Notes: generated from the sequence alone by a model not told the origin. A DNA stretch of 64,000 nt from Candidatus Doudnabacteria bacterium (GCA_003151625.1 PLYC01000020.1:28981-92980), one strand, 5' to 3'; shown: positions 3,079-50,233, counted from the stretch's first letter. Translations and numbers: made by a program.

Positions 3079-4062
3079 TTACAATTTAATATTTGAAATT
3101 AAAAACTTTTTAAGTCGTTGTGGCATAAAATTAATTTTATGTATTAATTGCCAATCAGAAATTACCCTTTTAGCTTGTACTGAATTACGGAATGCTAAAA
3201 TAGCTCTTAAATTATAGATTGCTTCATTTAAAATTGTGAATGTAATATTCTTCGCGTATTTAAACTTTCCCGTCAACACATAGCCAATTGATAGTGAAAT
3301 ATAAAAAAATAGGAAATAGGAAAGAGCGAAAGGGAGAAACAATAAAGAATAGTTATTCATTATACAATTGAACTCACCTTTTACATAATATGATAACTTT
3401 TCGGGGGAAAAAGTTCCTATTACTCCACCCCCATAATGATATAAATATGTGTCATTAAGAAAAAAATGTTTGTAGCCCATTAAATTTAGGCGCCAACATA
3501 AATCAACATCTTCTGAGTAGAGAAAAAAGTTTTCGCAAAATCCACCTACCTTTTTGAAAACACTTCTCGTTATAAATAGCGGGCATCCTGTATTATGAAA
3601 TATTTTATCTTTGTCAAAATTTATAACTGGTGCAGCTATAAAATCTATCGTTGAACCATAGCCCAAATTTCCACTTAAATTCTGTTCTTCATAATCCACT
3701 ATAGCACAGCCGATTGTGCCAACCACACTTTTGTTTTGTATCAAATTATATTGCGTAATAAATTTAAAAATAAAATCTTTTTCAACATACATATCCTCAT
3801 TAAAGAACATAAGAAAATCCCCTTTAGCACTTTGAGCTCCCATATTACATGCGTGCCCATATCCTAAATTTTTGCTTCTCACAATCTTAACTAATTGATA
3901 GTTATCCTTTATATAATCAACGCTACCATCATTTGAATTATTATCAACAAAAATAATCTCAAAATTCTTATATGTTTGAGACAATAACGAATCAAACAGC
4001 TTTTTAAGCCATTTTTTGCCATTATAATTTACAATTATGATTGAAATCAGTGGATTATTCAT
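3079..4062 (-). CDS. glycosyltransferase family 2
   Basis: 327 aa; ISIIIVNYNGKKWLKKLFDSLLSQTYKNFEIIFVDNNSNDGS GT-A N-terminal signature; DxD-type motif (EDVD). Confidence 0.8.
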   Translation of the reverse strand: MNNPLISIIIVNYNGKKWLKKLFDSLLSQTYKNFEIIFVDNNSNDGSVDYIKDNYQLVKIVRSKNLGYGHACNMGAQSAKGDFLMFFNEDMYVEKDFIFKFITQYNLIQNKSVVGTIGCAIVDYEEQNLSGNLGYGSTIDFIAAPVINFDKDKIFHNTGCPLFITRSVFKKVGGFCENFFLYSEDVDLCWRLNLMGYKHFFLNDTYLYHYGGGVIGTFSPEKLSYYVKGEFNCIMNNYSLLFLPFALSYFLFFYISLSIGYVLTGKFKYAKNITFTILNEAIYNLRAILAFRNSVQAKRVISDWQLIHKINFMPQRLKKFLISNIKL

Positions 4063-4099
4063 AATTAGCTAATGTTCTAAATCTATTTTTTGACACTTA

Positions 4100-5086
4100 T
4101 CACTTCCTTTTTGATTTATAATATTCCAAAAACCCAACCACGCTGCCACGAATTGCTCCCAATTGGGAAGATTGTTTTGTTATAATAAATTGATAAAAAT
4201 AATAACAGTCCTGAAAAATTATATAAGAAACAAATCTAACGCCCTTAGAGAAGGAGTCTAATTTTATATTACGCAAATAGAATATAATAAAATTAACCAT
4301 TCGCGGATAACTGCTTGGTCGGTCATTGAAGAAACCGTCTTGGGAAGGGCAATGATACAAAATTACTTTAGGATTAAAAATCAGTTTATAACCCAAATTT
4401 TTAATCTTGAAAGAAGCGTCTCCCTCGTGATAATCGCCCACTCCGGTATAAGTAACGTCAAATCCCCCGATTCTCCTCAAAAGATTCGTTCTAACCGAAA
4501 AATTACAGGCTTCTAAATTATTAACTTCCTGAAAATTTTCCTTGAGAGACCCTGGATAACTTGATCCCAGAGAGAAGGCGCCAGATTTAAACCAGTGGCT
4601 TACCTTATATGGCTCGCCTTCCATAAGAAAATTAAAATATATTTCCCCGATTATTTTCCAGAAAAAATTTCCGTCTTTAAATTTTCTTTCGAAAGAAAAC
4701 AAATCTCTATTTTTTATATATTCTTCCGGAATAATACTCGGGCCGGTCACGCCGCCAATTCTTTCGTCTTGTCCAAATGTTTCCTTAATTGATTCGAGCC
4801 AACGCTCACGCATGACAACATCATCATCGGTTCTAATAAAAATTTCTCCTTTAGCTTTTTCAAGGGCTAAATTAGCTGCTCTCGATAGACCCTTTTCCAT
4901 CTGATTAATAATTACGATATTTAAAATTTTCTTGTATTCGTCTATTAATTTAAAAACCTCATTTTTTGATCTGTAGTCAACAATAATAGTTTCAAAATTC
5001 TTATAAGTTTGATTTTTAAGAGAGTCTAAAACTTTTTTCAAACTTTCCTTCCTATTTCCTGTTGGAATGAAAACTGATATAAACAT
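4100..5086 (-). CDS. glycosyltransferase family 2
   Basis: 328 aa; SVFIPTGNRKESLKKVLDSLKNQTYKNFETIIVDYRS GT-A signature; TDDDV motif. Confidence 0.8.
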   Translation of the reverse strand: MFISVFIPTGNRKESLKKVLDSLKNQTYKNFETIIVDYRSKNEVFKLIDEYKKILNIVIINQMEKGLSRAANLALEKAKGEIFIRTDDDVVMRERWLESIKETFGQDERIGGVTGPSIIPEEYIKNRDLFSFERKFKDGNFFWKIIGEIYFNFLMEGEPYKVSHWFKSGAFSLGSSYPGSLKENFQEVNNLEACNFSVRTNLLRRIGGFDVTYTGVGDYHEGDASFKIKNLGYKLIFNPKVILYHCPSQDGFFNDRPSSYPRMVNFIIFYLRNIKLDSFSKGVRFVSYIIFQDCYYFYQFIITKQSSQLGAIRGSVVGFLEYYKSKRK

Positions 5087-5103
5087 AGTTTTTAAAACCT
5101 TTA

Positions 5104-5982
5104 TTAGTATACTATTCTTTCGAGTTTTCCCAAAAAATACCCTGTTTTATAAGGAATCCCCTTAATAAGCAACAATAATACTGATGCAAAACTCTCTTTC
5201 CACGTTCCTTCCTGGAATAATCCCTTTCTAAATCTCTCTTTCTCATTTAAAAGCTTTGTATACTTATTCGTCCTAGCACCAACGCTTGTATACCCCCACC
5301 TGTAAAATTTACGCCATATAACCAAAAGAGAGTTGGGCTCGATATGTTTTACGGCGTTTGGTAATAAATCAACTCTGTGGCTAATATTCCACGCTTCAAA
5401 ATAAATAATTGCATGATCTTGACCACCCACATTTTCAAGAACATCGATGGGGATATTGGCAAATGCCTTTTTAAGTATTTCCGTTCTATAAAATCTCGGC
5501 AACATTGCACCAGTTAACGGGTCAAAATCCTTTACTCTATGAATTAACTCTCTATCATAATGAAATAATTTTTCGATAAAATTATCACACCTATATACAT
5601 CTTCTTCTAAAATTAGCATATCTTTTGCGCTATCCATTTCAGCAATGGCTCTTTCAACACAGGTTGATTCCAGGATTTGATCGCTGTCAAGAAGCAAGAT
5701 ATACTCGCCATTTGCAATTTTCAAACCTTCATACCTAGCTCCCAAAAGAGCCTCCGGATAGTTTATAATTTTCGCTCCAAATTTTCTTGCTATTTCAATA
5801 GTATTGTCCTTTGAATTGCCATCAATAATATTAATCTCAATATTTTTGTACGTCTGACGGCGGACGGCATCAAGGCATCTCTCCAAAAAGAAAGCGCTAT
5901 TGAACGTTGGAATTGAAATTGTAACTAATGATTTACTCATGTTCCATATTTTTTTATTTGATGATATGTGTTCCTTTGGCAC
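5104..5982 (-). CDS. glycosyltransferase family 2
   Basis: 292 aa; VTISIPTFNSAFFLERCLDAVRRQTYKNIEINIIDGNSKDNT; LLDSDQ motif. Confidence 0.75.
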   Translation of the reverse strand: MPKEHISSNKKIWNMSKSLVTISIPTFNSAFFLERCLDAVRRQTYKNIEINIIDGNSKDNTIEIARKFGAKIINYPEALLGARYEGLKIANGEYILLLDSDQILESTCVERAIAEMDSAKDMLILEEDVYRCDNFIEKLFHYDRELIHRVKDFDPLTGAMLPRFYRTEILKKAFANIPIDVLENVGGQDHAIIYFEAWNISHRVDLLPNAVKHIEPNSLLVIWRKFYRWGYTSVGARTNKYTKLLNEKERFRKGLFQEGTWKESFASVLLLLIKGIPYKTGYFLGKLERIVY

Positions 5983-6000
5983 CTATAAAATCTCCGTAAC

Positions 6001-6870
6001 CTATTTCAAAATTGATTTCCTTGCTCCACTCTCCCTTCCCGCCAAATATCCGGCTCCGCCAAATCCAAATTTGAAGATATTGTATATTAAAAATTCGAGG
6101 CTCAATATCGGATGCTCAATAAATTTTTTCCAGTTTTTTGCGTATACTCCCCTAAAAAAACCCAATTGCTGCGGAGCTTCTTGCTTGTTTTCTTGAACGT
6201 AATTTACAAAGTTTTTTCCATAATGATAATATTTCTTCATATGTTTCCAAAAACTTTTTGGCTCTCCCAAATGTAAAGCCTCCGCCTCTATAAATCCCGT
6301 TTTATATCCACTTCTGTTCAATTTGTTTTGAAAATCATAATCTTCTCCGGCGATAATTTTTTCATTAAAACCGCCTATTTTCGCGTGAACTTCTCTTTTT
6401 ATAAATCGTGCCGATGAATGCGTAAGGTCATATTTATACATATCAACTTCAAATTTTCGCACCTTTGCAATCCATGAAACGGTTACGTCAGGAGAGTTGT
6501 GCACCACGATAGCATCATAGCCTTTTGCAGCTTCGGCAACACATTGCTCAACAACTTTATCATCCAAAACGAAGTCAGAATCAACCTTATAAACATATTT
6601 GCCACTAGCCTTAGTGACTCCATAATTAACCTGTGCACTTCGTTCCGGTCCGTAGTTAAAAACCTTGTCGGTATATTTCTTTGCAATCTCTTTTGTATCG
6701 TCGGTGCTGTTATTATCGACCACGATCAGCTCGATATTTTTGTAGCTTTGGTTTTTTATCGACTTCAAACATGCTTCAAGCGTTCTTGAAGAATTTTTTG
6801 TGGGAATAATGACCGAGACAAGAGGATTATCCATTGATTTTCTCCATGAACTGCCGATAGGAATTTTCAA
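6001..6870 (-). CDS. glycosyltransferase family 2
   Basis: 289 aa; VSVIIPTKNSSRTLEACLKSIKNQSYKNIELIVVDNNSTDDT; VDSD motif. Confidence 0.8.
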   Translation of the reverse strand: MKIPIGSSWRKSMDNPLVSVIIPTKNSSRTLEACLKSIKNQSYKNIELIVVDNNSTDDTKEIAKKYTDKVFNYGPERSAQVNYGVTKASGKYVYKVDSDFVLDDKVVEQCVAEAAKGYDAIVVHNSPDVTVSWIAKVRKFEVDMYKYDLTHSSARFIKREVHAKIGGFNEKIIAGEDYDFQNKLNRSGYKTGFIEAEALHLGEPKSFWKHMKKYYHYGKNFVNYVQENKQEAPQQLGFFRGVYAKNWKKFIEHPILSLEFLIYNIFKFGFGGAGYLAGRESGARKSILK

Positions 6871-7927
6871 AATTAATCTCTTTACTCCATTCCCAGCCGT
6901 TTTTTTGCAGTCGTTCGTATTCTTCCTTATTTTTCAAGAGTTTTATAATGTTTTCCGCCAGATTTTTAGGCGTATTCGTTTCACACATGATTCCCGTTTT
7001 CCCGTTTTTTACGCTATCACATAAACCGTCCGCGTTGTAAATTACTGCCGCCGTTCCCTGGCTGGCCGCTTCGGTAACAGTAAGCCCCCAGCCTTCCTTT
7101 ACGGCAGCCGCGGCAATAATGTGACTTTTTTGCATAAGCTCAATTTTCTTTTCCTTGCTTACCTTGCCTAAATATTTGACTGAAGAAGCATAGCGAGAAT
7201 TTTTTATGTGCGTGAGAATTTTTGCTCCATATCGACCATTGGCGTCCCCAGCAATAACAAGTTCCAGATTGGGAGTGGACGCTTTCGCGACTTCAAACGC
7301 TTTGACTATATGGCTGGTGCGCTTCATGGCGCGAACAGAGCCAAGCGCGAGAATGGTGGGATTCTCGTATTTTTGCGCCGATTCAAGATTAGGCACGGGC
7401 TCAATTTCTATTCCCTCGCTTATTATAGCAACATTGTCGGGCTTAAAGCCATAACGCGCCAGATCTTTTTTTGTGCTCTCCGATACCGTTATAACTTTTA
7501 TGTCCGAAAGTAACCATAGATAGATTGGCTCAATCACATACCCTAGAACATTCAACGGAAACGGCATTTCGTAAAACCAAATTTCGCGACAAAGCTGGTG
7601 TATAAACAGAATATTCTTTTCCTTAACGTAAAACTTGCAAAAAAACGGTAAAGTATTTACTTCGTCAATCGCCAAGTTTGCCCAGCTGCGCAGGTTTTTC
7701 CTATAGTAACGATATGCCTTCCAATATACGCTCCACCGATTACCGAGCCGCACTACGCGGTAACCGTCAATTTTTTCTTCGGGCAGACATCCTTTAAATC
7801 CCCCGACTAAAAAAATCACCTCATGCCCATCGCGCACGAGCCGCTTCGCAATTTCCTCATTGACAACCTCTGCTCCCCCGCTTAAAGGATGCGCCCGGTC
7901 TTTCCATGTAAACCATAAAATTTTCAT
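6827..7927 (-). CDS. glycosyltransferase family 4 (GT-B fold)
   Basis: 366 aa; N-terminal MKILWFTWKDRAHPLSGGAEVV, C-terminal EGWGLTVTEAASQGTAAV (E-x7-E-type motif); overlaps the upstream GT2 by 44 bp. Confidence 0.75.
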   Translation of the reverse strand: MKILWFTWKDRAHPLSGGAEVVNEEIAKRLVRDGHEVIFLVGGFKGCLPEEKIDGYRVVRLGNRWSVYWKAYRYYRKNLRSWANLAIDEVNTLPFFCKFYVKEKNILFIHQLCREIWFYEMPFPLNVLGYVIEPIYLWLLSDIKVITVSESTKKDLARYGFKPDNVAIISEGIEIEPVPNLESAQKYENPTILALGSVRAMKRTSHIVKAFEVAKASTPNLELVIAGDANGRYGAKILTHIKNSRYASSVKYLGKVSKEKKIELMQKSHIIAAAAVKEGWGLTVTEAASQGTAAVIYNADGLCDSVKNGKTGIMCETNTPKNLAENIIKLLKNKEEYERLQKNGWEWSKEINFENSYRQFMEKING

Positions 7928-7955: not shown

Positions 7956-8903
7956 TTATAATTTCTTTTTTCGTATCACGTACATCGGCCGGTTTGTGGT
8001 CTCGTTCTGTATATTCTCAATGTAGAGCGCGACAACCCCGAGACACATAAGAACAATGCCGATAAGAAATACATTGATAATGGCAAGCTGGGCGGAACCC
8101 GAAATATGCCAGCTCAAAGCATCATGGAAAACATAACGCTCAAAGAATACCGCTATGCCGAGCAGTCCTGAACAGAAAGTGATAAAAGTCCCAAGGTAGC
8201 CCGCGATACGAAGGGGAAACAGGCTATGGGAAACAAAGGAATACATTGCCAAATGAAAAAGCTTTCCCAAAGAATATTTTGCTTGCCCGTTCGCCCGTTC
8301 GTTCGCGTTAAACTCAATGTATTCCCGCCTAAACCCAAGCCAGTCAATTAGCGCCCTGGTGTTTCTTTGGCGTTCCGTAAAGGTATTAAAAGCATCAGCG
8401 ACCGAGCGGTTAATGAGCCGGAAATCGGTTTCCCGCGGAACCATAGCGGTATTGGAAATCGCACCTATAAGTTTGTAATACAGTGTCGCGCCACACTTCT
8501 TTATCAGGGAATAGCTTTTATTGTTCGCCCGGACGCCCACGACCACCTCTGCGCCATTTTGCCATTTCTCCAAAAAAAGCGGAATAAGTTCGGGAGGATG
8601 CTGAAGGTCGGCGTCAAGCATAATAACGGCGGCTCCGCGGGCATGGCGGATGCCGGCAGAGGTTGCTATTTCCTTGCCAAAATTCCTGGAAAAAGAAATA
8701 AGCTTAACCCGGAGGTCGCTTTGGGTCAATTTTTCTATCTCTGCGGCAGTACCGTCCGCGCTGCCGTCGTCAATAAACAAAAACTCGGCATCGTAGCGGG
8801 AGTTGAGGGATACAAAAACGCCCGTGAGCGCTTGGTGTAAGCGCGACAGATTGTCCTTTTCGTTATAGCAGGGAATAACGACTGAAATAAGCGGATGTTC
8901 CAT
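7956..8903 (-). CDS. polyprenyl-phosphate glycosyltransferase (GtrB/ArnC/DPM1-like GT2 with C-terminal TM helices)
   Basis: 315 aa; ISVVIPCYNEKDNLSRL...IDDGSADGT, MLDADLQHPPE motif, and two C-terminal hydrophobic helices typical of Und-P sugar transferases. Confidence 0.75.
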   Translation of the reverse strand: MEHPLISVVIPCYNEKDNLSRLHQALTGVFVSLNSRYDAEFLFIDDGSADGTAAEIEKLTQSDLRVKLISFSRNFGKEIATSAGIRHARGAAVIMLDADLQHPPELIPLFLEKWQNGAEVVVGVRANNKSYSLIKKCGATLYYKLIGAISNTAMVPRETDFRLINRSVADAFNTFTERQRNTRALIDWLGFRREYIEFNANERANGQAKYSLGKLFHLAMYSFVSHSLFPLRIAGYLGTFITFCSGLLGIAVFFERYVFHDALSWHISGSAQLAIINVFLIGIVLMCLGVVALYIENIQNETTNRPMYVIRKKKL

Positions 8904-8911
8904 ATTTTGTA

Positions 8912-10219
8912 TTATATACCTACAATAGGCTGGGCTTCAAGGAATCGTTTTTTCCCGGACCACAGATTTAAACAAAGGACTAAAACGTAACCGCACATAA
9001 ATGCCATAGTGATTGCCAGCGCTATCTCACGGATGCTCGCGTGGAAAAGAGCGACGCCGGACGCGGCGAGCGCAATGGTGGCAAGGAGCGCAAACGAAAC
9101 CCAATAAAGGTGCCGCGCGTACGCAAAGTTCGCTTCAAGCGTAAGAATGGAAAGAAAAAAGGTTAGCGGGCCAAAAAGCCAGAGGTCGTTTGCCACGGAA
9201 AGATATTTTGCGCCAAAAAGCATATGTACCGTAAGGCTTGGAAAAACAGCAAAAAGTAAAGAGCCGCCCGCGCTTATTACCGCAATGGCTCCATAGGCGA
9301 ACAAAACGGTCTTTAAGCCCGCCCTTTGTCCTTCGTGTCCCGCGGCATACACGCTCGGCAATACGGAAGCGATAACCGCCGCGTTTAACGTCAGAATAAC
9401 GGTCCCCAGGGTATGGAGCGCACCGTAAAATCCGGTCATCTCCGAGGATGTCAGGTTTTTCACCAAAAAAATATCTATATTGCCGAGCAGGATCATGAGC
9501 AGGGTAAAAATAAAGACATGCCGCATCTCCCGCCGGAAATTAAATTTCGCGTAATACGTTTGCTGCCAGTCGCCGCTGGGCGCCTCTTTTGTTTTTCCGC
9601 CGGGAAAATATAGCTTATAAAATAAAATGTAAGACAAAAGCCCGACGGCAGATCCAATAACAAACGAAAAAAGTACGGCGGACGCAGTAGGAAAAAATAA
9701 AACAATGATATAACCGGCAACCAGCTTTCCGGCCGCGCCTAAAATTCCCGCCAGGCCCACCGGAAGAAAATGTTCCCAGCCGGTAAGCGCTGAACTGTAT
9801 ATGGATATATATATGCCACCGAGAGAGGCGATTATTATAAAGATAAGCCCGTAATAACCGGACAAATGGAGTACCAGTACAATAAACGGTGTAAGTACAA
9901 GCAAAAGCCCAAAATATATAAAAACCCCTTTGTTGATTTTTGCCCTTGCCCACTCCATAAAGGCTTGGTTAGAGGCAAAATCTTTCGCTTTCCAAAAAAC
10001 GGGAAAAAACTTGAGAAAGAGATAGCCCAGCATTGATGCTACGGCGCCTGTTGTAAGAAACAGCGAATTCAGACTCTGAAATTCGCCATACCCGGCAACG
10101 GTCAGCCTTCGCGAAATTACGAATTGAAAAAAATAACCAAAAACCCCGGCAATAAGAGCTCCGAGGCTTAAGATGACGCTGTTCTTTACGAGCTTGTCTT
10201 TTAAAAAAAATTGGCGCAT
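8912..10219 (-). CDS. MOP-superfamily polysaccharide flippase (Wzx/MurJ-like)
   Basis: 435 aa, roughly 12 predicted TM helices, N-terminal VKNSVILSLGALIAGVFGYFFQFVISRRLTVAGYGEFQSLNSL typical of polysaccharide biosynthesis/flippase proteins; first gene of the minus-strand glycan operon. Confidence 0.55.
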   Translation of the reverse strand: MRQFFLKDKLVKNSVILSLGALIAGVFGYFFQFVISRRLTVAGYGEFQSLNSLFLTTGAVASMLGYLFLKFFPVFWKAKDFASNQAFMEWARAKINKGVFIYFGLLLVLTPFIVLVLHLSGYYGLIFIIIASLGGIYISIYSSALTGWEHFLPVGLAGILGAAGKLVAGYIIVLFFPTASAVLFSFVIGSAVGLLSYILFYKLYFPGGKTKEAPSGDWQQTYYAKFNFRREMRHVFIFTLLMILLGNIDIFLVKNLTSSEMTGFYGALHTLGTVILTLNAAVIASVLPSVYAAGHEGQRAGLKTVLFAYGAIAVISAGGSLLFAVFPSLTVHMLFGAKYLSVANDLWLFGPLTFFLSILTLEANFAYARHLYWVSFALLATIALAASGVALFHASIREIALAITMAFMCGYVLVLCLNLWSGKKRFLEAQPIVGI

Positions 10220-10519: not shown

Positions 10520-12019
10520 ATGGTCAAAAAAGCAAGAGATTTTTTTTCTAGTGAAACGCGTGTCGCCAGAGTTATTTATGGCGGCTTAATGTTGGTTATT
10601 TTTGGTTTTGTTTTTGGTCCATCGGTGATGGCTCAATTTTATCGCAATACACAGACAACCGGTTATGGCTATGGAACCGGTTATGGTTATGGCTACGGCT
10701 CCGGTCCTGATGGTGGTGCAAATGGATATAGGATTAATGGTAGCGCACCACTTACTGAATACGGCTACGGCTACGGATTTGGAGCGGAACCGGTCGTTGC
10801 GTTTACCAGTACCTATAGCCAGACCGTTACCGTCGGAAGCGTCGCTACCTTTACCGCGCACGCCACGGATACTGATGTCACCACTCCGGGTGTTGCCATT
10901 GCCTATAACTCCAGCGACAAGCCCGCTGGCGCTACCCTCAATTCCTCGACAGGCGCGTTCTCATGGGACACGACCGGAATTACACCTAACCCCTATACTT
11001 TCACGGTGACGGCGGCCGGCAACACCGGCGGCTTGGCTAGCCAGAGTGTCACTATTACCGTCAACGCGGTTTCAAACAGCGGCGGTAATAACGGTAGCAG
11101 CGGCGGCGGTAGCAGCGGCGGCGGCTATGCCATGCCAACGGCCAGTTTTACTACCAATTACAGCCAGATAATTTTGGGACAATCCGCTACTTTGACATGG
11201 ACAACCACTAACGCCACTGCCGTTAGCATCAACCAAGGCATTGGGACTGTCGGTACTTCCGGCACAACAATCGTTACTCCTACCAGCACCACCACTTATA
11301 TTTTAACCGCTACCGGTTCCGGCGGGACCACAACTCAAACGGTAACTGTGACCATAGGTTCAAGTATGGTGGTATCTACTCCTGCAAACCCTTCTTCGGG
11401 GCTCCAATTGCCGGGCGCAGGTGTTGCCGGGGCGCACACTCCGGGATCGGTAATTTTGACCACGGACGGGACAGTTTGGTTCATTACATTGGACAATACC
11501 CGCCGAGCCTTTACTTCGGCCGGAGCGTTTCTGTCATACGGCTACTTGTCATTCAGTCAGGTAGTTGACGCTAACGCGGTGGATTTGACTTTGCCGCAAG
11601 GCACGTTTATTCCTCCTATGGATGGTAAAGTTGTCTGTTCGGACCGCAACGACTCCTATGCCGTAAAAGGCACCTGCTATTTAATAACCAACGGCGAAAA
11701 GGCGGCTTTTACTTCCGCTAAAGTCTTTACCGCTTTGGGTTTTAAGTTCAGCCATACAACCAAAGGCGATGTATCATTCTTGACCCCAGATGCAAATATA
11801 AGCAATGTAGCCTTAGCACACCGCCCGGGCGTATTGGTTAATAACAAAGGCACTGTCCAGCTAGTTGGAATGAACGGCTTAATGGGTATCCCTACCATGA
11901 GTGTGCTTGGTTCTTGGGGCTACACTTTGGCCGACGTTGTCCCGGCCAATGCCGCGGATAAAGCCATAACCCAATCCGGCGTTATGCCTACCCGTATAAC
12001 CGGACAGCTTAGCCCGTAG
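10520..12019 (+). CDS. secreted/anchored surface protein with Gly-Tyr repeats, He_PIG-type putative Ig domain, Ig-like Thr-rich domain and duplicated C-terminal module
   Basis: 499 aa; N-terminal hydrophobic signal/anchor; GYGYGTGYGYGYGSG...EYGYGYGFG low-complexity; ATLNSSTGAFSWDTTGITPNPYTFTVTA (putative Ig domain signature); SSGGGSSGGG linker; internal repeat RRAFTSAGAFLSYGY / KAAFTSAKVFTALGF. Confidence 0.6.
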   Translation: MVKKARDFFSSETRVARVIYGGLMLVIFGFVFGPSVMAQFYRNTQTTGYGYGTGYGYGYGSGPDGGANGYRINGSAPLTEYGYGYGFGAEPVVAFTSTYSQTVTVGSVATFTAHATDTDVTTPGVAIAYNSSDKPAGATLNSSTGAFSWDTTGITPNPYTFTVTAAGNTGGLASQSVTITVNAVSNSGGNNGSSGGGSSGGGYAMPTASFTTNYSQIILGQSATLTWTTTNATAVSINQGIGTVGTSGTTIVTPTSTTTYILTATGSGGTTTQTVTVTIGSSMVVSTPANPSSGLQLPGAGVAGAHTPGSVILTTDGTVWFITLDNTRRAFTSAGAFLSYGYLSFSQVVDANAVDLTLPQGTFIPPMDGKVVCSDRNDSYAVKGTCYLITNGEKAAFTSAKVFTALGFKFSHTTKGDVSFLTPDANISNVALAHRPGVLVNNKGTVQLVGMNGLMGIPTMSVLGSWGYTLADVVPANAADKAITQSGVMPTRITGQLSP

Positions 12020-12044
12020 AAAGTAGAAATTGAGAAATTGGATT

Positions 12045-12084
12045 AACCCCGCCCCGAGCGAAGTCGAGGGGCGGGGTTTTGATA
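12045..12084 (+). terminator. rho-independent terminator of the surface-protein gene
   Basis: AACCCCGCCCC-gagcgaagtcga-GGGGCGGGGTT followed by TTTTGATATT. Confidence 0.6.
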
Positions 12085-12092
12085 TTGTGGCA

Positions 12093-12121
12093 TTGATTTT
12101 TTCTTTAATTTTTGCTATAAT
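12093..12121 (+). promoter_or_regulatory. sigma70-like promoter (TTGATT-17 bp-TATAAT) for the two-gene cassette
   Basis: TTGATT at 12093-12098, 17-nt spacer, TATAAT at 12116-12121, 32 bp upstream of ATG 12154. Confidence 0.4.
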
Positions 12122-12153
12122 TAGAGCAGAATTAAAGAAAATTCCATAGCATT

Positions 12154-12357
12154 ATGCCTCGTAATTGGTCTGCTGACGAAGCAAAAATTAAAGAAAAAGG
12201 ACAACGAACACATACCATTTGGAAATTGGAACAGATGGTGAATTTTGGTTTGGTGAACGGGGAAAAAATCAAAGCGTCTGAACTTAGGAAATATTGGAAG
12301 AATTTAAATTTGGACAAAGAGCGCAAAAAAACGGTGGAATTTTTAATGAACAATTAG
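12154..12357 (+). CDS. small basic protein, candidate cognate antitoxin/partner of the downstream nucleotidyltransferase
   Basis: 67 aa, Lys/Glu-rich (MPRNWSADEAKIKEKGQRTHTIWKLEQ...); stop TAG at 12355-12357 and next ATG at 12359 (1-nt gap) indicating translational coupling. Confidence 0.35.
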   Translation: MPRNWSADEAKIKEKGQRTHTIWKLEQMVNFGLVNGEKIKASELRKYWKNLNLDKERKKTVEFLMNN

Positions 12358-12358
12358 A

Positions 12359-13018
12359 ATGCAAAATAAAATATTAACCGCAGAACAAATTGCAATCCTG
12401 GAATATTTGGGGAAAGACAAATTTTTTGCCAAACAATTTTATTTGACCGGCGGCACCCCATTGGCCGCTTTTTATTTGCGTCATAGGTACAGCGAAGATT
12501 TGGATTTTTTTTCCGAACAGGAAGTAGATCCGGTTTCTGTTAGAGTCTTGCTGAAAGGCTTCAAAGCGGGCGCGGGGATAACGAGAATAGATTTTCAGCA
12601 AAGCATGAACAGGAATTTATTTTTTTTAGAGTTCGGCAAAGATACTCTTAAGACAGAGTTTACTTACTTTCCTTTTCCCAGGATTGAAAAAGGAAGGGTG
12701 AAATACGGCCTAAGCGTGGATAGCGCGATAGACATTGCCGTCAATAAACTTTTTACCATTTATCAGCGCAATAAAGCCAGGGACTACATTGATTTGTATA
12801 TGCTATGTAAAAATTATGAGTTTGGCATAGTGGATTTAATCAAATTGGCCAAATTAAAGTTTGACTGGCATATTGAACCTATACAGTTAGCCACCCAGTT
12901 TTTAAAAGCGGAAACAGCGGCGGAATACCCGAGAATGCTGGTTAAGATGCCGGATGCGGAATGGCAAGATTTTTTTCGTGGAGAAGCAAAAAAAATAAAA
13001 CCGGAAATAATTCAGTAA
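12359..13018 (+). CDS. nucleotidyltransferase of the AbiEii/AbiGii (DUF1814) type IV toxin family
   Basis: 219 aa; FYLTGGTPLAAFYLRHRYSEDLDFFSEQE matches the pol-beta-fold GG[ST]...R.SEDLDF signature of AbiEii toxins. Confidence 0.65.
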   Translation: MQNKILTAEQIAILEYLGKDKFFAKQFYLTGGTPLAAFYLRHRYSEDLDFFSEQEVDPVSVRVLLKGFKAGAGITRIDFQQSMNRNLFFLEFGKDTLKTEFTYFPFPRIEKGRVKYGLSVDSAIDIAVNKLFTIYQRNKARDYIDLYMLCKNYEFGIVDLIKLAKLKFDWHIEPIQLATQFLKAETAAEYPRMLVKMPDAEWQDFFRGEAKKIKPEIIQ

Positions 13019-13023
13019 TTAAC

Positions 13024-13130
13024 GCCAATGCCGCGGATAAAACCATCCAGCAGTCCGGCGTTATGTCTGCCCGCATAACCGGACAGCTTAGCCCGTAGAA
13101 AGTAGAAATTGAGAAATAAGGAAATTGAGA
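13024..13130 (+). pseudogene. diverged duplicate of the last 24 codons + 3'UTR of the surface-protein gene (gene-end remnant flanking the inserted cassette)
   Basis: 13024-13098 encodes ANAADKTIQQSGVMSARITGQLSP* vs gene end ANAADKAITQSGVMPTRITGQLSP* (11945-12019); 3'UTR AGAAAGTAGAAATTGAGAAAT.. also repeated (with a 16-bp internal tandem duplication); roughly 88% nt identity over about 100 bp. Confidence 0.6.
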
Positions 13131-13200
13131 AATTGGATAAACAAGGTAATAATGGACATCGTTGTGCCGCACAGTGATGCCCATTATTCACATAGGATTA

Positions 13201-13229
13201 TTGACACGGTTTTAGTAAGGCGATACAAT
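13201..13229 (+). promoter_or_regulatory. consensus sigma70 promoter TTGACA-17-TACAAT
   Basis: TTGACA 13201-13206, 17-nt spacer, TACAAT 13224-13229, 25 bp upstream of ATG 13254. Confidence 0.45.
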
Positions 13230-13253
13230 AAGTAGGCAATTAAATACAAAATT

Positions 13254-13631
13254 ATGGAATTAACCAGGGAACATTTTGATAAAGCCGTAAAAGATTTGGC
13301 TACTCAAGAGAGTGTGGAAGATTTGGGTAAAACCGTAGCTCAAATTAATTTGACTGTTAATACTCATACTGCCGGCTTTAAACAACTTGACGGGAAAGCT
13401 GATCGCACCGCCGTGTTGGCCGCTAACCTGGTAGAAGAATTCCATGAAGTTCCGGCAACCCTTAAATCAATCGTGCGAACTCTGGATAGCCACACCGCTG
13501 TTTTAGAGCAGCGTCTTTCAAAAAAGAAAGCCAAAGATGAAGAAAAAACTGTATCCGTTGAACGATTTGACCGTTTGGAACATTGGGCAGCCTTAGTCGG
13601 CAAAAAACTTGGCATTAAGCTGGAATTATAA
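13254..13631 (+). CDS. hypothetical protein (predicted helical/coiled-coil), co-transcribed with the O-antigen-ligase-like gene
   Basis: 125 aa; stop TAA 13629-13631 abuts ATG 13632 of next gene; no recognisable motif. Confidence 0.45.
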   Translation: MELTREHFDKAVKDLATQESVEDLGKTVAQINLTVNTHTAGFKQLDGKADRTAVLAANLVEEFHEVPATLKSIVRTLDSHTAVLEQRLSKKKAKDEEKTVSVERFDRLEHWAALVGKKLGIKLEL

Positions 13632-49742: not shown

Positions 49743-49752
49743 TTAAGTCAAC

Positions 49753-49780
49753 GAGTGCTTATTCGCACGAATAAGCACTC
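49753..49780. promoter_or_regulatory. 28-bp perfect palindrome (GAGTGCTTATTC-gcac-GAATAAGCACTC) at 5' end of ArsR-family gene; candidate operator
   Basis: 12-bp arms with GCAC centre, 10 bp upstream of ATG 49791. Confidence 0.5.
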
Positions 49781-49790
49781 GGAGGAATTT

Positions 49791-50051
49791 ATGAAAGAAT
49801 TAGAAAAACAATTAAAAGCTTTGGCAAACGCAAGAAGGCTTAAAATTTTAAAATATCTGGAAAAGGTTAACAAGGCTTCGGTTGGTGATATTGCCAGGGA
49901 AATTAAACTTTCGTTTAAATCCACTTCCCGGCATTTGGCGGTTTTAAGAGCCGCGGAAATGGTGTTTGCCGATCAGCAGAGTTTGATGGTTTTTTATAGT
50001 TTGGTAAATCCGAAACCTTTAATTGTCAGACAAATTCTTGACCAGTGCTAA
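49791..50051 (+). CDS. ArsR/SmtB-family winged-helix transcriptional regulator
   Basis: 86 aa from ATG 49791 (MKELEKQLKALANARRLKILKYLEK...VGDIAREIKLSFKSTSRHLAVLR); an alternative GTG start at 49755 (ORF track) would place the palindrome inside the CDS. Confidence 0.65.
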   Translation: MKELEKQLKALANARRLKILKYLEKVNKASVGDIAREIKLSFKSTSRHLAVLRAAEMVFADQQSLMVFYSLVNPKPLIVRQILDQC

Positions 50052-50068
50052 TTCGCACGAATTAGCAC
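50045..50068. promoter_or_regulatory. 24-bp palindrome (GTGCTAATTC-gcac-GAATTAGCAC), near-copy of 49753-49780, overlapping the ArsR stop codon
   Basis: Same GCAC-centred architecture as the upstream palindrome with TTATT/AATAA changed to TAATT/AATTA. Confidence 0.5.
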
Positions 50069-50233
50069 CAGAAGGGATAATAAAATATATTTGATCTCGC
50101 AAAGAGGGCGGAATTCAGGTTTAATACCTCGTGGCTTGTCTCGAGGAAGCTTTATTTTGAGTTTTTATCTTCTTATGTTATAATAATTGGGCGAATAAAG
50201 TAAAAGGAAACAAAAATAGCTACAATGGAGACA

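Follow-up and report, generated by a model that had tools for sequence, protein, structure and literature searches.

It has been asked since 2000, when insertion with long target duplication was described, by what route chromosomal toxin-antitoxin and restriction-modification modules can travel if they carry no mobility genes, and the locus described here bears on this question. In a stretch of 64,000 nucleotides (nt) of DNA from Candidatus Doudnabacteria bacterium (GCA_003151625.1, PLYC01000020.1:28981-92980), which was analysed at its full length and is referred to below as the window, a cassette of two genes lies directly behind the gene for a putative surface protein and is followed in turn by a second, orphan copy of the end of that gene. 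The cassette encodes a basic protein of 67 amino acids (aa) and a 219-aa nucleotidyltransferase of the DUF1814 family, presumed to be an antitoxin and a toxin, respectively. How did the cassette come to be placed between two copies of a gene end, and what kind of module is it? The account developed below, in which a toxin-antitoxin module was inserted with a long duplication of its target, is regarded as reasonably probable.

Insertions of this type were reportedly described by Nobusato et al. in 2000. For restriction-modification modules, insertions with long target duplication have been collected mostly from naturally competent species, and their mechanism is unknown (Furuta et al. 2010, PMC2853133). 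The criteria used in that work are an insert absent from a collinear relative, direct repeats of more than 30 bp that are single-copy at the empty site, and the lack of a mobility gene; each of these is found at the present locus.

Empty sites and the insertion point

The surface-protein gene is an open reading frame (ORF) of 499 aa at 10520-12019, with its stop at 12019, on the plus strand, which is also the strand of its terminator, of both repeat copies, of the cassette with its promoter and two genes, and of the downstream DNA. The locus was compared with four relatives that carry no cassette. In one of them (L003), whose flanks are 94% identical to those of the window at the DNA level and which has a 93%-identical orthologue of the surface protein (P0121), no cassette separates the surface-protein gene from the gene that follows, and the gene end is present once. 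Three others (L092, L094 and L005) are likewise empty, the surface-protein gene being followed by the downstream DNA with no second gene end. Collinearity between the window and L003 ends at the stop codon of the surface-protein gene and resumes at 13139, where the ancestral downstream DNA (13139-13631) starts with AAACAAGG; it is 94.5% identical to L003 9576-12289.

In L092 the gene end is followed by an unrelated 3' untranslated region (UTR), by a terminator identical to that of the window (CCCCGCCCCGAGCGAAGTCGAGGGGCGGGGTTTTG) and then directly by AAACAAGGTAATAATGG, which corresponds to the window from 13139 onward, the TTTTG of the terminator abutting AAACAAGG. It follows from this arrangement that the extra DNA of the window is 12082-13138, which is absent from the cassette-free relatives and consists of the cassette and the orphan repeat copy; the conserved module (12082-13023) measures 942 bp and the full insert about 1.06 kb. 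On this sequence comparison, the insertion point is between 12081 and 12082, immediately after the terminator of the surface-protein gene. An earlier reading of the window, made without database searches (hereafter the sequence-only reading), had taken the cassette for an insertion and had called for a comparison with empty sites; the four relatives bear out the insertion, but they place it after the terminator and not within the gene end, as had been supposed. The same reading held that a duplicate gene end in all cassette-free relatives would speak against it; the gene end is single in L003, L092, L094 and L005.

The terminator itself (12047-12080) consists of a 9-bp GC stem (CCCCGCCCC/GGGGCGGGG) followed by TTTT and belongs to the target gene, not to the cassette. 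It was read directly from the sequence, a simple hairpin scan having omitted it because its loop is too long.

Repeat copy A (11945-12043) comprises the last 75 nt of the surface-protein gene together with its 3' UTR (AAAGTAGAAATTGAGAAATTGGAT) and is part of the intact gene. The orphan copy B (13024-13138) begins after the five bases that follow the toxin stop (13018) and repeats the last 75 nt, with a TAG of its own (13096-13098), and the 3' UTR, here with two GAAATTGAGAAAT units (13105-13117 and 13121-13133); it has no terminator hairpin. The identity between 11945-12038 and 13024-13117 is 90% over 94 nt and 88% over the 75-nt coding part, and the repeat extends to TTGGAT at 12043 and 13138 if the 16-nt tandem unit in copy B is allowed for. 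A gene-end copy of about 88% identity behind the toxin stop, with such a tandem unit, had already been pointed out in the sequence-only reading, and it proved to be the sole repeat of its kind in the window. When metagenome contigs were scanned with a 20-mer (CCGGACAGCTTAGCCCGTAG), the sole match was in L091, an unrelated high-GC chance match.

The presence of the terminator after copy A and its absence after copy B had stood as an objection to a duplication made by staggered cuts. Copy B ends in GGATAAAC|AAGG, where L092 has ATAAAC, the hairpin TTTTGAAAC and AAGG; in the L092 arrangement the hairpin is bordered by two AAAC repeats, and loss of the DNA between them fits, as it would reproduce copy B exactly, and lifts the objection. 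A single gene-end copy in L003 is to be set against a repeat of 94-115 nt in the window, with one extra deletion, that of the terminator, required for copy B. No integrase, transposase or other mobility gene was found in 12082-13138, which holds the two cassette ORFs only.

The window belongs to a metagenome contig of 141 kb (ENA ERZ27254241; k141 assembly) with Patescibacteria as its nearest relatives, the closest named one being a Candidatus Doudnabacteria MAG (metagenome-assembled genome), and its two repeat copies differ in the way that alleles do, as would be expected if two strain alleles of the gene end had been misjoined during assembly. However, the right-hand junction (CAGTAATTAAC|GCCAA) is present in four separate assemblies obtained from different samples and by different pipelines, namely the window, L010 (98% identical), L008 and L009, which makes an assembly artefact very unlikely; analogous structures are also found in many unrelated MAGs, and we give such an artefact hardly any credence. 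In L008 and L009 the toxin is 86% identical to that of the window, and both architecture and junction are the same. That they share this architecture despite diverged gene ends indicates that the structure is old or has passed between lineages. In both, the orphan copy is followed by an insertion sequence element; that of L008 (1365-2709; an rve-family transposase and a HTH_Tnp_2 gene on the minus strand) starts right after the stop of the orphan gene end, where it replaces the downstream UTR.

Flanking repeats in the cassette family

The flanking duplicate is no peculiarity of the window locus; duplicates of this kind were found at unrelated genes in other members of the cassette family. Eighty loci that encode toxin homologues of 50-82% identity were collected from a diverse set of Patescibacteria, and at each locus the 300-350 nt upstream of the small gene were compared with the 200-300 nt downstream of the toxin stop. 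An ungapped repeat score of at least 15 was obtained for 18 of 74 cassettes as against 1 of 357 controls with shifted coordinates. A gapped score of at least 25 was reached by 13 of 70 cassettes as against 1 of 91 neighbouring genes (Fisher p = 9e-5), the controls in this test being neighbouring ORFs of 200-450 aa put through the identical procedure. The sole control with a flanking repeat (score 30.5), an ORF on the minus strand of L059 (3205-3807 in reverse-complement coordinates), may likewise be a small gene that was inserted with duplication of its target.

The downstream repeat starts 0-17 nt past the toxin stop in 10 of these 13 repeat-flanked cassettes. The repeats of the 13 are 35-107 nt long with 73-100% identity, and shorter ones of about 20-26 nt are present at other loci. 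They are locus-specific, unrelated among loci and derived from the neighbouring genes: the 3' end of rplT (L081), a class II aminoacyl-tRNA synthetase gene (L038), yceG (L013), spoU (L050), an ABC transporter gene (L086), the 5' start of the downstream recO (L052), and a terminator together with a promoter (L073). In every repeat-flanked case examined, the neighbouring gene is still present in one intact copy. Near-identical repeats are found at L067 (46/46), L038 (83/85) and L014 (34/35).

Conservation of the family starts at the promoter (-8 to -61 from the ATG) and ends within a few bases of the toxin stop. Among about 75 loci, no conserved terminal motifs, terminal inverted repeats or shared core were found, the information outside the promoter-to-stop unit being zero. 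A transposon or a miniature inverted-repeat transposable element was considered and rejected, as the termini are not conserved and the repeats are variable, at about 20-107 nt.

Direct repeats derived from the 3' end of a target gene are also typical of islands mobilised by an integrase. Copies A and B could on this ground be taken for the attL and attR sites of a site-specific integrative element whose integrase was lost, or which is mobilised in trans like cis-mobilisable elements, and the identical junction (CAGTAATTAAC|GCCAA) in the window and L008 and the very high conservation of the flanking UTR motif would agree with such a remnant. We nevertheless hold it to be very improbable: the 1.06-kb insert encodes no integrase and nothing beyond the two cassette ORFs, the repeats elsewhere are unrelated in sequence, vary between about 20 and 107 nt and share no common core, and the family was not found on viral contigs, a scan of which with the AbiEii alignment gave no relative of the cassette.

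Since the repeats are locus-specific and lie at unrelated genes, and neither a recombinase nor conserved terminal sites are present, the event is read as a recombinase-independent insertion with long target duplication, which would probably have taken place on DNA taken up by competent bacteria. Both comEC and type IV pilus genes have been reported in a Patescibacteria genome. In L006, a Doudnabacteria MAG, a GC-rich, structured-looking segment of about 230 nt (6661-6890) directly follows the cassette, with a perfect 17-bp hairpin terminator at 6902-6937.

The toxin-like nucleotidyltransferase

The second cassette gene (12359-13018) encodes the 219-aa protein, which is a new member of a known family, the DUF1814 (AbiEii/MenT-type) toxins, on account of its profile match, its invariant signature and the fold matches. 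The sequence-only reading had assigned it to AbiEii/DUF1814 and had named a PF08843 search as the check; the protein scores 70.4 bits against a cut-off of 22.5 (E 2.8e-19, profile positions 8-220 of 238), and 19 PADLOC AbiEii models match it. The nearest solved relative by sequence is JHP933 of H. pylori (4O8S; E 6e-6; about 20% identity). The catalytic motifs GG[ST], R-x-[ST]-x-D-x-D, Lys and R-D-x-x-D are all present and align with SEDLDF and KARDLFDL of JHP933, and the residues G31, T33, R43, S45, E46, D47, L48, D49, K130, R141, D142 and D145 are invariant in 24 toxin homologues at 57-86% identity. The fold comparison was made with a model of a natural partner-toxin fusion homologue (predicted local distance difference test score, pLDDT, 86.5) and not of the window protein; the Foldseek matches of this model are 4OK0 and 4O8S (JHP933) at E 2.5e-7, 6J7P (TglT/MenT3) at 5e-5 and 8AN4 (MenT1) at 1.4e-3. 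More than 3,000 matches were returned by the homologue search.

In MenT1, MenT3 and AbiEii, auto-phosphorylation of the toxin is induced by the antitoxin (PMC11375011; bioRxiv 10.64898/2026.01.19.700257). The phosphoacceptor of MenT1 is T39, two residues ahead of the first catalytic Asp (catalytic mutant D41A) (PMC10435456), and AbiEii T65 and MenT3 S78 have been put at the structurally equivalent position (bioRxiv 10.64898/2026.01.19.700257). Judged by the motif R-Y-S45-E-D47-L-D49, S45 of the window protein would occupy the phosphoacceptor position of T65 (AbiEii), T39 (MenT1) and S78 (MenT3). The description of AbiEii as GTP-specific and type IV, on which the sequence-only reading relied, is outdated, as a 2026 preprint reclasses the AbiE system of S. 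agalactiae as type VII in view of its auto-phosphorylation and reports a preference of its toxin for pyrimidines rather than GTP (bioRxiv 10.64898/2026.01.19.700257).

The small partner protein

The first cassette gene (12154-12357) encodes the basic, all-helical 67-aa protein with an invariant core IWKLEQMVNFG..GEK, and a single base separates its stop from the start of the 219-aa ORF. A homologue of it is encoded directly upstream of the toxin gene in 79 of the 80 loci, the lone exception being cut by the contig end, in agreement with the two-gene cassette proposed earlier. A profile of the partner family, searched against 1.84 billion representatives, gave 216 clusters, nearly all of them stand-alone proteins of 50-110 aa, and two of the matches are natural fusions of the partner domain to an AbiEii domain. 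These single-chain proteins, P0258 (282 aa) and P0373 (210 aa), are either genuine or frameshifted gene calls; if real, they argue for a direct physical interaction of the two proteins. On the strength of its conservation, the 67-aa ORF is a real gene, and its protein the regular partner of this toxin subfamily.

An AlphaFold2 model of the 67-aa protein has four helices (pLDDT 74.5). The protein has no Pfam or PADLOC match at E<=1 and no sequence match in the PDB at E<=10, MenA1 (8AN5) included, and Foldseek against the PDB gave nothing better than E = 5. Two candidate identities were rejected: a truncated AbiEi, in view of the empty Pfam, PADLOC, PDB-sequence and Foldseek searches, and a homologue of MenA1, with which the protein has only size and helicity in common and neither a sequence nor a fold match. 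The partner is thus an undescribed family of small proteins in a role that has precedent, and no description of the family or of the flanking repeats was found in the open-access literature. The sequence-only reading had called the partner small and non-canonical; it is indeed not AbiEi and matches no antitoxin family, but it is not an oddity of this locus, being regular in the family and sometimes fused to the toxin. The family is unannotated and widens the known range of control of the tRNA-modifying DUF1814 toxins.

The tight spacing and conservation of the operon agree with the general layout of toxin-antitoxin pairs, neutralisation of the 219-aa protein by the 67-aa protein being presumed. 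The cassette is not a canonical AbiE system, because no AbiEi (COG5340, with a winged-helix N-terminal domain and a C-terminal domain) is encoded upstream. It resembles AbiE of S. agalactiae and Lactococcus in its PF08843/DUF1814 toxin, in the catalytic motifs, in a Ser at the position of T65 and in the antitoxin gene upstream in the operon; it differs in the 67-aa helical partner, AbiEi being a winged-helix protein of about 200-300 aa that also has a C-terminal domain, and in the shorter, 219-aa toxin. JHP933 (4O8S, 4OK0) is the nearest relative by both sequence and fold and shares the SEDLDF and KARDxxDL motifs, but its identity is about 20% and it is encoded in a proteobacterial plasticity zone. 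To our knowledge, no equivalent small partner of JHP933 is known.

By analogy, the functionally nearest system would be MenA1-MenT1 of M. tuberculosis, in which a short DUF1814 toxin is likewise paired with a very short helical antitoxin that is not AbiEi (68 aa, as against 67 aa here). MenA1 binds across MenT1, blocks its active site and induces its auto-phosphorylation (PMC10435456, PMC11375011). The differences are that the 67-aa partner has no sequence or fold likeness to MenA1 and that the window toxin matches JHP933 better than MenT1; the heterotrimer and the phosphorylation step of MenA1-MenT1 are putative for the window pair. If the analogy holds, the free toxin would add nucleotides to the 3'-CCA ends of tRNA and so halt translation, and the 67-aa partner would bind and block it, probably triggering auto-phosphorylation at S45, so that the two together would act as an addiction or abortive-infection module.

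The pair might instead be a harmless regulatory or RNA-modifying one and no toxin-antitoxin system, the repeats arising incidentally in intergenic DNA that is prone to recombination. Of the four homologues in M. tuberculosis, MenT2 has no detectable toxicity (PMC10435456), and the cassettes sit among housekeeping genes and not in obvious defence islands. We consider this quite improbable. The catalytic residues and the residue at the phosphoacceptor position are invariant, coupling to the small upstream gene is strict, the distribution is patchy, with presence and absence between 94%-identical genomes, and flanking repeats are found at just 1 of 91 neighbouring genes.

Origin of the flanking duplication

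According to the account favoured here, 12082-13023 would be a selfish addiction or defence module with its own promoter, an antitoxin-like gene and a nucleotidyltransferase gene. The original duplication would have measured 137 nt (11945-12081: gene end, UTR and terminator) and surrounded the 942-bp cassette. Copy B would then have lost the hairpin by slippage between the flanking AAAC repeats, one 16-nt UTR unit would have been gained or lost, and the copies would since have been partly homogenised or recombined. Such a duplication would leave the neighbouring surface-protein gene intact, and toxin-antitoxin addiction would guard the cassette against being lost when the repeats recombine.

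The long-target-duplication insertions of restriction-modification modules are comparable in several respects: a selfish addiction module, no mobility gene, and variable direct repeats of more than 30 bp which are present once in the empty genome and often lie over the 3' end of a neighbouring gene, mostly in competent bacteria (PMC2853133). The present cases differ in their toxin-antitoxin cargo, in the many diverged repeat pairs and in having one boundary pinned to the toxin stop. As a toxin-antitoxin cargo makes no DNA breaks, the link to double-strand cleavage by the restriction enzyme that has been proposed for restriction-modification modules is inapplicable. With the recurrent flanking duplications around a toxin-antitoxin unit bounded by a stop codon, a phenomenon that is known but unexplained gains both a new cargo and a new phylum.

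Several observations weigh against the account favoured here. A fresh target duplication is expected to give two identical copies, and the divergence of copies A and B thus counts against it. Their substitutions are clustered: all nine fall within the first 51 nt, and the following 65 nt or so are free of them (p ~6e-4 for uniform decay), a clustering that is also seen in L008. L003 agrees with copy A at sites 19 and 25-27 and with copy B at sites 30, 43, 46 and 51, which gives a crossover-like mosaic. When the window is compared with L008, identity is 93-100% in UTR and terminator as against about 75-79% in the gene ends; the UTR of copy B (13099-13138) is 40/40 identical to the left UTR of L008 (198-237), whereas the gene ends next to these UTRs are only 68-75% identical, the terminators 93% and the cassettes 84%. 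The clustering, the mosaic and this pattern of identity speak against simple decay of a duplicate that was identical at first. At other loci the repeats are just 77-90% identical, and at L081 (rplT) and L013 (yceG) the pair resembles two distinct alleles, both of them ending in a stop codon of their own. In addition, about 80% of the cassettes have no detectable flanking repeat, matched empty sites are available at the window locus only, and the 67-aa partner has no detectable likeness to any known antitoxin.

The UTRs of the cassette-free relatives are unrelated to those of the window (13099-13138 and 12020-12043), and the GAAATTGAGAAAT motif was found nowhere else in the window or among 94 loci; the UTR that bears it may be under constraint or a recent exchange. 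At this locus, either the copies have undergone gene conversion with each other, or other alleles have been exchanged with them, or the UTR is constrained; at least one of these must have played a part.

The divergence of the repeats and their allele-like copies are explained at least as well by the import of one copy from another strain. In a homology-anchored import, a fragment with the 3' end of the gene, UTR, terminator and cassette would have recombined inside the surface-protein gene and displaced the resident end, the toxin stop being joined illegitimately 75 nt upstream of the resident stop at the other end; such an event would be a homology-facilitated illegitimate recombination; alternatively, a circle would have entered by a single crossover. 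Copy A would then be donor DNA at least in part and copy B the displaced resident end. This would suit the L003 mosaic, which equals A in its 5' part and B in its 3' part, the conservation of UTR and terminator beyond that of the gene ends, with unrelated UTRs at the empty sites, and the distinct alleles at rplT and yceG; further, in the two lineages whose related cassettes have just one flank in common (window/L008; L013/L031/L047), it is the upstream flank.

A similar displacement has reportedly been described for effector-immunity arrays of the type VI secretion system (T6SS). At Rhs, CdiA and T6SS loci, new toxin-immunity DNA arrives on a conserved gene end and leaves the old end as an orphan downstream. 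The orphan gene end downstream of newly arrived DNA is the point of likeness; there, however, the displaced piece is the toxin tip of the same protein, whereas here the neighbours (surface protein, rplT, aminoacyl-tRNA synthetase, yceG) are unrelated to the function of the cassette.

Against anchored import, copy B bears the cassette-linked UTR and not one of the resident type, and the identical or near-identical repeats at L067, L038 and L014 look like true duplications. The repeat at L052 is the 5' start of the downstream recO, which an upstream anchor cannot explain, and the first arrival of the cassette at each new gene is left unexplained. We therefore regard anchored import as possible but on the unlikely side. 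The proposal in the sequence-only reading that the flank came with the cassette from another allele survives as one of two models: the UTR and terminator seem linked to the cassette, as it implies, but copy B has the same UTR and the differences between A and B are confined to the first 51 nt. Duplication and anchored import may both operate in the family.

For insertion with long target duplication, a wider and more tentative reading can be framed, in which the module would be a recombinase-free mobile addiction unit of Patescibacteria, spread by DNA uptake and inserted by housekeeping genes with long, variable target duplications, the repeats then serving as portable homology for excision, amplification or re-integration into relatives. 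We regard this, too, as possible but on the unlikely side. If true, it would amount to the virus-like life cycle that has been proposed, but never demonstrated, for restriction-modification modules, and the thousands of homologues would form the largest natural data set for working out the mechanism. With dozens of independent insertions of one small, sharply bounded unit, the mechanism becomes testable by genome comparison. Insertions of this kind would also offer small Patescibacteria genomes a route to gain selfish or defence genes beside essential genes (rplT, aminoacyl-tRNA synthetase, recO) with no inactivation.

Cassette promoter and inverted repeat

The ORFs of 67 and 219 aa, the promoter, the terminator and the gene-end repeat were all found where the sequence-only reading had placed them. 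The cassette promoter (12093-12121) has a -35 box TTGATT, a 17-nt spacer and a TG-extended -10 box TATAAT. Matches to the promoter consensus are at least as frequent in shuffled sequence as here; it is from this promoter onward that the nucleotide sequence resembles that of the same cassette elsewhere (L006/L011), and a signal TTGAtTTTT ... TGnTATAAT is conserved family-wide (L012-L090, 40 nt upstream of the small gene). In most family members about 6-7 nt lie between the end of the -10 box and the ATG of the small gene, which is why its transcript is probably leaderless in them. The sublineage of the window (window, L008, L011) departs from this, its -10 box being placed 32 nt ahead of the small gene.

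A perfect 19-nt inverted repeat (12098-12116 and 12180-12198) has the promoter spacer as one arm; the other arm spans codons 9-15 of the gene for the 67-aa protein, and the two are 63 nt apart. Its score of 19 in the window compares with a family median of 7, which is the shuffled level, and it is otherwise present in L010 alone. A role as the operator of the family was rejected, as the repeat is confined to the window/L010 lineage; in this lineage it could serve as an operator or fold into an RNA structure when transcription reads through, or it could have been left behind by a local inverted duplication.

Neighbouring genes and other repeats

The surface protein has an N-terminal hydrophobic segment and an Ig-like He_PIG domain (Pfam, 38 bits), and its C-terminal domain of about 200 aa is common to many Patescibacteria proteins, as found by a homologue search. 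In the downstream DNA, a promoter-like site was found by promoter scan at 13201-13229 and a 125-aa gene was called at 13254-13631.

L003 carries a gene for a 353-aa Fic-domain protein (5125-6507) between a glycosyltransferase gene and the gene for a 435-aa membrane protein. At the equivalent site of the window (near 8903-8912) the two neighbouring genes are just 8 nt apart, and a second toxin-like accessory gene thus differs between genomes that are 94% identical. No long flanking repeats were found on checking the Fic gene of L003.

Two further repeats were seen elsewhere in the window. A 53-nt segment is present in four diverged copies at 3927-6751, spaced by about 0.85-1.03 kb, and reflects the succession of paralogous glycosyltransferase genes encoded there on the minus strand. 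Another element, of 38 nt and palindromic in its interior (ACGAGTGCTTATTCGCACGAATAAGCACTCG...), occurs twice, at 49751-49788 and 50041-50078, the two copies being 290 nt apart and 82% identical.

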